Source: Escherichia coli | GTDB taxonomy: Bacteria; Pseudomonadota; Gammaproteobacteria; Enterobacterales; Enterobacteriaceae | Reading direction: 5' to 3' (one strand) | NCBI RefSeq assembly: GCF_002854065.1 | Contig: NZ_CP024147.1 | Length of the DNA: 64,000 nucleotides | Shown here: positions 9,545 to 12,476 of the stretch, one piece after another | How positions within the stretch are numbered: position 1 is the first letter of the stretch | How the letters are laid out: the number at the start of each line of letters is the position of its first letter | Position numbers and translations under genes: made by a program | The notes under the pieces: generated by a model | Told to the model about the DNA's origin: nothing | Seen by the model: the letters and a program-made list of their open reading frames with translations, nothing else | Database searches by the model: none

Positions 9545-9665
9545 CCTGCCATAACGTGAAGAAGCAATGACCTGGTGGTCCGTGACTTCCCTACGCTGGC
9601 ATTATCCAGATCAGGTGATACGGGTATTTCTCAGCCTTCACGCAGAAGGGCACCCCGAGTCGTTT
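9545..9665 (-). promoter_or_regulatory. TPP riboswitch (THI element) in the thiM leader
   Basis: Minus-strand sequence ...ggggtgcccttctgcgtgaaggctgagaaatacccgtatcacctgatctggataatgccagcgtagggaag... immediately upstream of the thiM ATG matches the thiM TPP aptamer as recalled. Confidence 0.85.
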
Positions 9666-9758
9666 GGTTGCGATGATAAATCGCAGAGGAGGATGGTAAT
9701 GTCCAGCGCACGCGTTGTAAACGAGGAAAAACGGCAGTTTTACAATCGCGTTAATAAA

Positions 9759-10031
9759 TTATTTGATATATGAATCCAGCACCTTCAGAACGACATCCAG
9801 ATCTTCTTCACGTTTTAGCTCATCCCCCTGGTGAACGATGTGTTCCGTCAGATGACCTTTAATCACTTCCCGCATCAGACCGTTTACCGCGCCACGGATA
9901 GCAGCAATCTGTTGTAAAACTGCAGCGCATTCGTGCGGCTCGTCGAGCATTTTCTTGAGCGCCACGACCTGGCCCTGAATCTTACTGGCACGCGCTTTCA
10001 GTTTCTGTTTATCACGGATTGTATGAGACAT
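9759..10031 (-). CDS. rcnR: Ni/Co-responsive transcriptional repressor (CsoR/RcnR family)
   Basis: 90-aa [52 protein letters not shown]... recognised as RcnR. Confidence 0.9.
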
Positions 10032-10077: not shown

Positions 10078-10112
10078 TCTACTGGGGGGTAGTATCAGGT
10101 ACTGGGGGGGAG
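10078..10112. promoter_or_regulatory. Two RcnR operator sites (TACT-G6/7-N-AGTA) in rcnR-rcnA divergent promoter
   Basis: tactggggggtagta at 10078-10092 and tactgggggggagta at 10098-10112; G-tract inverted repeats of the type described for RcnR binding. Confidence 0.75.
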
Positions 10113-10151
10113 TAGAATCAGATTGCCGAATTAATACTAAGAATTATTATC

Positions 10152-10976
10152 ATGACCGAATTTACAACTCTTCTTCAGCAAGGAAACGCCTGGTTCTTCA
10201 TCCCCAGCGCCATCTTACTTGGTGCGCTTCATGGCCTGGAACCAGGGCACTCAAAAACGATGATGGCGGCGTTTATCATCGCCATCAAAGGCACCATTAA
10301 ACAAGCGGTGATGCTCGGACTGGCAGCAACTATTTCGCATACCGCAGTGGTCTGGTTAATTGCCTTTGGCGGGATGGTGATCAGCAAGCGCTTTACTGCT
10401 CAATCAGCAGAACCGTGGCTCCAGCTGATTTCCGCAGTGATCATTATTAGCACCGCGTTCTGGATGTTCTGGCGTACCTGGCGCGGCGAACGCAACTGGC
10501 TGGAGAATATGCACGGGCATGATTATGAGCATCATCATCACGATCACGAACATCACCACGACCATGGACATCATCACCATCACGAACATGGCGAGTATCA
10601 GGATGCCCATGCACGAGCCCATGCCAATGACATTAAACGACGCTTTGATGGTAGAGAGGTCACCAACTGGCAAATTTTGTTATTTGGCTTAACCGGTGGC
10701 CTTATCCCCTGCCCGGCAGCAATTACCGTGCTGTTGATATGCATTCAGTTGAAAGCCCTGACACTGGGCGCAACACTGGTCGTCAGTTTCAGCATTGGCC
10801 TGGCGTTAACGCCTGTCACCGTAGGCGTTGGCGCAGCAATCAGCGTTCAGCAGGTCGCAAAACGCTGGAGCGGATTTAACACTCTCGCTAAACGCGCCCC
10901 CTATTTTTCCAGTCTGTTGATTGGCTTAGTCGGTGTGTATATGGGCGTACATGGCTTCATGGGCATAATGCGATAA
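10152..10976 (+). CDS. rcnA: Nickel/cobalt efflux membrane protein with His-rich loop
   Basis: 274-aa ORF with HGHDYEHHHHDHEHHHDHGHHHHHEHGEY histidine-rich segment and NiCoT-like transmembrane regions. Confidence 0.9.
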   Translation: MTEFTTLLQQGNAWFFIPSAILLGALHGLEPGHSKTMMAAFIIAIKGTIKQAVMLGLAATISHTAVVWLIAFGGMVISKRFTAQSAEPWLQLISAVIIISTAFWMFWRTWRGERNWLENMHGHDYEHHHHDHEHHHDHGHHHHHEHGEYQDAHARAHANDIKRRFDGREVTNWQILLFGLTGGLIPCPAAITVLLICIQLKALTLGATLVVSFSIGLALTPVTVGVGAAISVQQVAKRWSGFNTLAKRAPYFSSLLIGLVGVYMGVHGFMGIMR

Positions 10977-11194: not shown

Positions 11195-11533
11195 ATGACC
11201 ATTAAAAATAAGATGTTGCTGGGTGCGCTTTTGCTGGTTACCAGTGCCGCCTGGGCCGCACCAGCCACCGCGGGTTCGACCAATACCTCGGGAATTTCTA
11301 AGTATGAGTTAAGCAGTTTCATTGCTGACTTTAAGCATTTCAAACCAGGCGATACCGTCCCAGAGATGTACCGCACCGATGAGTACAACATTAAGCAGTG
11401 GCAGTTACGTAACCTGCCCGCGCCTGATGCCGGGACGCACTGGACCTATATGGGTGGCGCGTACGTGTTGATCAGCGACACCGACGGTAAAATCATTAAA
11501 GCCTACGACGGTGAGATTTTTTATCATCGCTAA
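11195..11533 (+). CDS. rcnB: Periplasmic Ni/Co homeostasis protein
   Basis: Translation MTIKNKMLLGALLLVTSAAWAAPA... with signal peptide; 112 aa after trimming the 172-aa ORF. Confidence 0.85.
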   Translation: MTIKNKMLLGALLLVTSAAWAAPATAGSTNTSGISKYELSSFIADFKHFKPGDTVPEMYRTDEYNIKQWQLRNLPAPDAGTHWTYMGGAYVLISDTDGKIIKAYDGEIFYHR

Positions 11534-11614: not shown

Positions 11615-11761
11615 TTAGTCGTATTTCACGTTGATTAATGCGGTTGCCTCCAGTGCGCCAGATTTAATTTTATTTGTATCGTAGACGTAGTAACTGGCTG
11701 TTATCGGAATTGAAACCGTTGTATCTGTAAGTTTTGACTTTGCCGCAATTTCTTTTAAATT
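11615..11761 (-). pseudogene. yehA: 3' remnant of a fimbrial-subunit-like gene (yehA position) truncated by IS1
   Basis: Minus-strand frame reads ...NLKEIAAKSKLTDTTVSIPITASYYVYDTNKIKSGALEATALINVKYD* and runs open into the IS1 end at 11764; gene identity inferred from position next to rcnB. Confidence 0.5.
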
Positions 11762-11778
11762 TGGGTAATGACTCCAAC

Positions 11779-12282
11779 TTATTGATAGTGTTTTATGTTC
11801 AGATAATGCCCGATGACTTTGTCATGCAGCTCCACCGATTTTGAGAACGACAGCGACTTCCGTCCCAGCCGTGCCAGGTGCTGCCTCAGATTCAGGTTAT
11901 GCCGCTCAATTCGCTGCGTATATCGCTTGCTGATTACGTGCAGCTTTCCCTTCAGGCGGGATTCATACAGCGGCCAGCCATCCGTCATCCATATCACCAC
12001 GTCAAAGGGTGACAGCAGGCTCATAAGACGCCCCAGCGTCGCCATAGTGCGTTCACCGAATACGTGCGCAACAACCGTCTTCCGGAGCCTGTCATACGCG
12101 TAAAACAGCCAGCGCTGGCGCGATTTAGCCCCGACGTATCCCCACTGTTCGTCCATTTCCGCGCAGACGATGACGTCACTGCCCGGCTGTATGCGCGAGG
12201 TTACCGACTGCGGCCTGAGTTTTTTAAATGGCGGAAAATCGTGTTGAGGCCAACGCCCATAATGCGGGCGGTTGCCCGGCAT
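11779..12282 (-). CDS. insB: IS1 InsB reading frame (transposase made as InsAB' by -1 frameshift)
   Basis: 167-aa ORF ...[54 protein letters not shown]... recognised as InsB; overlaps insA 3' end. Confidence 0.9.
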
Positions 12283-12476
12283 CCAACGCCATTCATGGCC
12301 ATATCAATGATTTTCTGGTGCGTACCGGGTTGAGAAGCGGTGTAAGTGAACTGCAGTTGCCATGTTTTACGGCAGTGAGAGCAGAGATAGCGCTGATGTC
12401 CGGCAGTGCTTTTGCCGTTACGCACCACCCCGTCAGTAGCTGAACAGGAGGGACAGCTGATAGAAACAGAAGCCAC
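12201..12476 (-). CDS. insA: IS1 InsA protein
   Basis: 91-aa [46 protein letters not shown]... recognised as InsA. Confidence 0.95.

Follow-up and report, generated by a model that had tools for sequence, protein, structure and literature searches.

A tract of alternating histidine and acidic codons inside rcnA, the gene for a nickel and cobalt exporter of Escherichia coli, raises the question of whether it is a repeat that changes in length between strains, and if so, which alleles change, by what means, and with what consequence for the protein. The DNA that we analysed, called the window throughout, is a single stretch of 64,000 nucleotides that carries one rcnA allele. A preliminary description of it had proposed that the interval 10500–10625 encodes a His-rich loop of RcnA through a CAY/GAY codon repeat, that such tracts are prone to slippage, and that loop length and metal-binding capacity may therefore differ between strains; an invariant tract length among sequenced strains was named there as the finding that would count against the idea.

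The gene is identified by its product. The rcnA coding sequence (10152–10976, + strand) specifies a NicO-family nickel/cobalt efflux protein of 274 aa, as established from the ORF list, Pfam, NCBIfam and RefSeq. The translated ORF matched the Pfam NicO family (PF03824) over residues 13–273 with an E-value of 5.3e-70 and 236.4 bits (cut-off 27.7), and matched the NCBIfam nickel/cobalt efflux transporter model NF007454 / PRK10019 over its full length with 555.8 bits (cut-off 195); RefSeq annotates rcnA in 5,365 E. coli genomes. The genomic context is that expected for the family, with rcnR divergent from rcnA and rcnB downstream. The Ni/Co-responsive repressor gene rcnR (9759–10031, − strand) was recognized by Pfam PF02583, by the NCBIfam RcnR equivalog (197 bits, cut-off 138) and by the RefSeq annotation of strain 100416, while rcnB (11195–11533, + strand), whose product is a periplasmic accessory to the efflux system, was recognized by Pfam PF11776 (E = 7e-19) and RefSeq annotation. 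Two TACT-G6-N-AGTA motifs, near-identical to one another and of the form TACTGGGGGG(T/G)AGTA, were read from the sequence between rcnR and rcnA at 10080–10094 and 10100–10114, 20 bp apart and with no strand assigned. These G-tract motifs are candidate matches to the RcnR operator consensus (Iwig & Chivers 2009), a feature already known and unremarkable. The window protein is the nickel/cobalt exporter RcnA of E. coli; according to a citing paper, nickel/cobalt efflux or resistance was attributed to the K-12 protein by Rodrigue et al. 2005.

The window RcnA differs from K-12 RcnA solely by L221P. Codon 221 (nt 10813, C in the window versus T) specifies Pro in the window (LALTPVTVG versus LALTLVTVG), in a position that falls within a predicted transmembrane segment; Leu is present there in K-12 and in all seven other full-length alleles that were fetched. 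The only 100% rcnA match in the spread sample was that of strain 100416 (Gambia, stool), which shows 1 mismatch to the window over 5.8 kb. The L221P variant looks rare, and a Pro residue within a helix could impair the exporter. Other features of the neighborhood were recorded alongside. Downstream, an IS1B element (11779–12476, − strand) adjoins a 153-bp yehA remnant (11615–11767) and is followed by apbC/mrp; at the corresponding point K-12 possesses intact yehA and yehB after rcnB, and the yeh fimbrial operon appears to have been deleted beside IS1 in the window. Upstream of thiM lies a putative TPP riboswitch at approximately 9571–9667 (− strand), with coordinates transferred from a near-identical RefSeq record.

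Codon view and alignment delimit the His-rich loop to 28 codons (10512–10595, + strand) between the WLENM and YQDAH motifs. The 75-nt string highlighted in the preliminary description (10518–10592, + strand, inside its 10500–10625 interval) was read directly and is in frame in rcnA. The loop corresponds to RcnA residues 121–148 and reads HGHDYEHHHHDHEHHHDHGHHHHHEHGE. With 17 His (10 CAT and 7 CAC codons), 3 Asp and 4 Glu in 28 residues, and with the protein identified by Pfam and NCBIfam, the assignment of this tract to a His/Asp/Glu loop of RcnA is confirmed. His accounts for 2.4% of residues outside the loop, and the binomial probability of encountering at least 17 His in 28 residues is ~6e-21.

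We then asked how repetitive the tract is at the nucleotide level. TRF and a repeat search located a degenerate 18-bp periodic core, built on a 6-codon HHxDHE-like unit, at 10533–10589 (+ strand), for which TRF reported a period of 18, 3.2 copies and 76% matches. The longest perfect 6-bp-periodic run extended over 13 nt, equivalent to 2.2 units, and the longest 3-bp run over 11 nt (CATCATCATCA). A codon-shuffle control returned z = 1.8 (p = 0.057) at lag 6 and z = 1.7 (p = 0.064) at lag 18 for the window tract; at lag 6, the same control returned z = 3.5 for an O157 allele and z = 4.1 for an HE allele, the two types being described below. By the perfect-run scan and the codon-shuffle test, a pure tandem array is absent from the window allele. 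The window tract is highly non-random in composition and marginally repetitive in codon order; it is simple-sequence-like, and no true microsatellite. Its repeat-like look is mostly due to composition, because a two-codon amino acid makes up 60% of the tract, and what is left of the 6-codon HHxDHE unit is a faint remnant. Three additional ORFs that overlap the tract (10404–10673, − strand; 10447–10614, − strand; 10519–10692, + strand) were dismissed as incidental to the repetitive codons.

Strain-to-strain variation was queried in 5,426 complete E. coli genomes, in 5,365 of which rcnA was found. In a sample drawn at even spacing from the ranking of these 5,365 genomes, rcnA was 825 bp long in 52 rows, and seven rows furnished other lengths (804, 810, 840, 846, 849, 852 and 858 bp). 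The seven length variants and K-12 were fetched first, and 17 loop alleles were read overall: the window, K-12 and 15 fetched alleles. Protein and codon alignments of the 17 placed all indels within the His loop and all at multiples of 3, so that length changes among E. coli strains were observed in no other part of rcnA. In complete genomes, the alleles that were read span 792–882 bp, with loops of 17–47 residues that contain 10–25 His; their ORFs are intact, and no frameshifted rcnA allele was encountered among the sequences read. Loop length is thus polymorphic between strains, as had been anticipated. Among non-redundant RcnA proteins, 41 distinct loops were present in the 116 that were anchored out of the best 120, with lengths up to 54 aa and up to 32 His. 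In three of these proteins (P0048, P0076 and P0041) the loop, of 45–54 aa with as many as 32 His, contains a tandem duplication of 12 or 18 residues, which shows that it expands also by units larger than the 6-bp step of the typing marker discussed below. The window allele and an allele longer by 15 nt possess three and four copies, respectively, of an 18-bp unit, so that repeat units of several sizes take part in loop change.

The alleles are divided into three families, the sizes of which are estimates obtained from BLAST identity bands and evenly spaced 60-row samples of loop queries run at a strict E-value. The window/K-12-type arrangement matched 4,890 genomes. An identical span was present in 56 of 60 evenly spaced rows at 96.6–100% identity (up to 3.4% point divergence), and the last rows of the sample comprised relatives longer by 6, 15 and 24 nt and one partial match; the window loop length is carried by ~85% of rcnA-bearing complete E. 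coli genomes. The K-12-type allele of the window behaves as length-stable across most of the species. Rare length variants of this type do exist, in that a form with an additional His-His occurs in the non-redundant proteins P0022 and P0026. Synthetic queries with one CAT added to or removed from the (CAT)3 run found no variant in a near-identical background. The ordinary allele (98.5%) topped the ranking by coverage × identity in these searches, the one record at ≥99% in each was read as a partial match, and the result covers the near-identical background, while more divergent backgrounds may hold variants.

The second family is of the O157:H7 type, in which the loop is encoded by a pure (GACCAC)n array with n = 4–11 in about 325 genomes. 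Sampled spans ranged from 219 to 261 nt in 6-nt steps with a mode at n = 6, and were distributed over n = 4 (6 rows), 5 (4), 6 (24), 7 (12), 8 (5), 9 (2), 10 (1) and 11 (1); n = 4, 5, 6, 7 and 11 were confirmed by sequence reading. The flanks of these alleles are identical, and the alleles differ solely by whole GACCAC units. One of the 325 matches comes from a record that bears a plasmid label; the replicon may have been mislabelled or misassembled. The third family, termed HE-type, carries a pure (CACGAG)n array with n = 2–7 and a mode of 4 in about 150 genomes, with n = 2, 4, 5 and 7 confirmed by sequence reading. Length variation is concentrated in these two pure-hexanucleotide families, and a tract that had to be invariant for the original proposal to fall varies in unit number from 4 to 11 within the O157:H7 lineage alone.

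The same tract is in routine use under another name. The PulseNet primers for the MLVA marker VNTR-19, printed in PMC8461963 together with a published amplicon range of 283–357 bp, anneal on either side of it in the window, the forward primer at 10434–10469 (+ strand, 1 mismatch in the window allele) and the reverse primer at 10687–10715 (− strand, 3 mismatches), with a predicted amplicon of 282 bp; on O157 alleles the two primers have 0 and 1 mismatch and yield amplicons of 303–315 bp. VNTR-19 is equivalent to O157-19 (Keys et al. 2005) and TR7 (Noller et al. 2003) (PMC3768571), and O157:H7 clade medians at this marker are 5–7 repeats (PMC10062581). The rcnA His-loop tract is the MLVA marker VNTR-19/O157-19/TR7: the chromosomal locus is the same, the primers bracket the tract, and the 6-bp unit of the marker changes in frame. 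The polymorphism that is typed, however, is the O157-type pure (GACCAC)n array, and the K-12-type allele of the window is without such an array. Polymorphism of the rcnA loop is thus already known and established as a strain-typing marker, and a specialist will find nothing surprising in it. We found no E. coli paper that names rcnA or yohM for the VNTR, the literature matches being Salmonella and Klebsiella papers. PulseNet types O157:H7 at eight MLVA loci, of which the tract is one, and STTR5, its counterpart in Salmonella, is in routine surveillance use; the E. coli typing literature that we found gives VNTR-19 only by number, and the link to RcnA connects the marker with a feature of a protein for which a phenotype is plausible.

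The typing data also bear on whether the polymorphism could be an artefact of sequencing or assembly in a low-complexity region, given that repeats are notorious for assembly errors and that some of the records are long-read assemblies. We regard this as scarcely credible. Every difference amounts to a whole number of 6-bp units or to a multiple of 3 bp and leaves the frame intact, and the arrays, at 68 nt or less, are much shorter than a read. PCR fragment sizing in MLVA, with its 283–357 bp amplicons (PMC8461963), reveals the polymorphism independently of assembly, and the published clade medians of 5–7 repeats (PMC10062581) match the sampled mode of 6–7.

Overall, the best explanation, to which we assign a probability of roughly 0.9, is that the RcnA His loop varies in frame by the gain and loss of repeat units, with mutability set by repeat purity. 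The tract encodes the central His-rich loop that joins the N- and C-terminal transmembrane halves of RcnA, an RcnR-regulated Ni(II)/Co(II) efflux protein, and the loop is composed across the species of CAY (His) codons alternating with GAY/GAR (Asp/Glu) codons. Repeat units are gained or lost in frame, in steps of 6 bp (a His-Asp or His-Glu dipeptide), 18 bp, 36 bp or 54 bp, and a change in copy number causes no frameshift, the unit being two codons long. Slipped-strand mispairing or unequal recombination is the most likely mechanism, and we infer slippage from the graded single-unit series, the identical flanks and the near-clonal nature of the O157:H7 lineage, together with published passage experiments in which TR7 gained and lost whole units at 1.3e-4 per generation (PMC3777172). 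The purity of the repeat would determine how changeable an allele is: the (GACCAC)n and (CACGAG)n alleles act as true VNTRs, and the K-12-type allele, in which CAT and CAC are mixed and Gly, Tyr and Glu codons break up the repeat, has been length-stable across most of the species. The idea of a slippage-prone tract suits the pure-array sister alleles much better than the window allele, the length of which was unchanged in 56 of 56 sampled genomes of its arrangement. That a single species harbors both a stable interrupted form and a mutable pure-array form offers a clean natural illustration that purity governs instability.

A different history could be read from the same alleles, in which most of the difference in loop length stems from alleles that diverged long ago and were shuffled between lineages by homologous recombination, and the tract is not intrinsically unstable. 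The three families are distinguished by substitutions within and beside the loop in addition to length, identity between families is just 91–94% over rcnA, and the commonest arrangement is length-invariant in a sample drawn from thousands of genomes, all of which would be expected from such a history; the differences between families may indeed reflect old divergence or recombination instead of recent slippage. Within families the record is of another kind. The O157-type series from n = 4 to n = 11 progresses by whole GACCAC units between identical flanks, the CACGAG series from n = 2 to n = 7 does likewise, and recombination would be unable to yield series so graded in a near-clonal lineage. 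Single-unit changes of TR7 arise at the rate cited above in serial passage (PMC3777172), and published MLVA outbreak data point to many independent copy-number changes between sister strains. As an account of the loop-length differences in general, old divergence is therefore rather unlikely, and unit gain and loss governed by purity is the reading that we retain.

Given an in-frame polymorphism of a metal-exporter loop, we were curious to know where the loop resides and whether its length could matter. In RcnA, the segment WRTWRGER precedes the loop and KRRFDGR follows it, with hydrophobic segments on both sides. The loop probably faces the cytoplasm, because Arg/Lys-rich segments border it; a cytoplasmic loop has been predicted by others too (PMC11247825), who describe the role of the loop, whether in the transport path or as a chelator or store, as unsettled. 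Judging by His counts of 10–25, metal-binding capacity may vary with loop length, in keeping with the original suggestion. A literature search did not find a study that links STTR5 or loop length to cobalt or nickel handling.

One functional proposal is that loop length is an adaptive tuning knob for metal buffering or transport, with selection holding the copy number suited to each niche. Several observations are compatible with it: the His content ranges 2.5-fold, from 10 to 25, in complete genomes; STTR5 alleles drift toward mid-range both in surveillance and in vitro, for which the authors suggest a preserved YohM function (PMC5183578); the RcnA loop is greatly expanded in cable bacteria (PMC11247825); and HD arrays occupy the equivalent loop in distant taxa. 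Against this, length-dependent mutation alone also predicts a mid-range bias, a single loop length prevails in ~85% of rcnA-bearing complete E. coli genomes of diverse host and source, which speaks against niche-specific tuning in this species, and the literature search found no phenotype data; we consider an adaptive tuning knob quite unlikely. The most ambitious version, in which the His count of the loop would quantitatively set Ni/Co export or buffering, the arrays would serve as a reversible heritable knob, and the switch to pure arrays would represent evolved evolvability, strikes us as very doubtful. Were the tuning reading true, the passage from an interrupted to a pure array in O157:H7, in the HE lineage and in Salmonella would not be a neutral accident.

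The distribution of similar arrays outside E. coli was explored by scanning one genome per species for (GACCAC)4, which returned at least 120 loci in many phyla, mostly in unrelated His/Asp-rich genes. Among the matches listed, four (GACCAC)n arrays are situated in the loops of RcnA homologues with both protein halves matched: those of Citrobacter (L024, 85% identical), Thiolinea (L084), a Beijerinckiaceae MAG (L089) and L110. A Streptomyces array (L019) has a weak N-terminal match to RcnA only, and no Salmonella locus was present among the matches listed. HD arrays in the RcnA loop, to judge by these homologues, occur across the family, and would reflect either repeated origin or long retention of a mutable array.

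A close known system outside E. coli is the Salmonella MLVA locus STTR5, which lies in yohM (the equivalent of rcnA), has the unit CACGAC, and is described as located "between two domains" (PMC5183578; PMC1781188). According to these papers, STTR5 and the E. coli O157 allele are alike in the orthologous gene, the inter-domain His-rich loop and the CACGAC/GACCAC unit; positional orthology rests on the papers and on the sequence of the Citrobacter homologue. The Salmonella arrays are longer, with a median of 10 and up to 26 units, and are dominant in the species, whereas in E. coli only minority lineages carry the pure array. In Klebsiella pneumoniae, MLVA locus 27 lies within RcnA and consists of 0–19 copies of a 6-bp repeat (PMC3948817); it and the E. 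coli tract are both hexanucleotide VNTRs inside the RcnA gene, while the Klebsiella unit, given as CATGGT, is different. The RcnA of cable bacteria possesses a greatly expanded His-rich loop of 100–123 aa with 33–53 His (PMC11247825). Family and central loop are the same as in E. coli, the difference residing mainly in length and His count; the cable-bacteria loop is a fixed, lineage-wide expansion observed between distant taxa, whereas that of E. coli is a copy-number polymorphism within a species. Phase-variable contingency loci likewise have a simple-sequence repeat in a coding region that changes by slippage. We considered this class for rcnA and rejected it, as every observed length change keeps the reading frame; in contrast to contingency loci, the 6-bp unit of the E. 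coli rcnA repeat alters the length of the protein and does not switch its expression.
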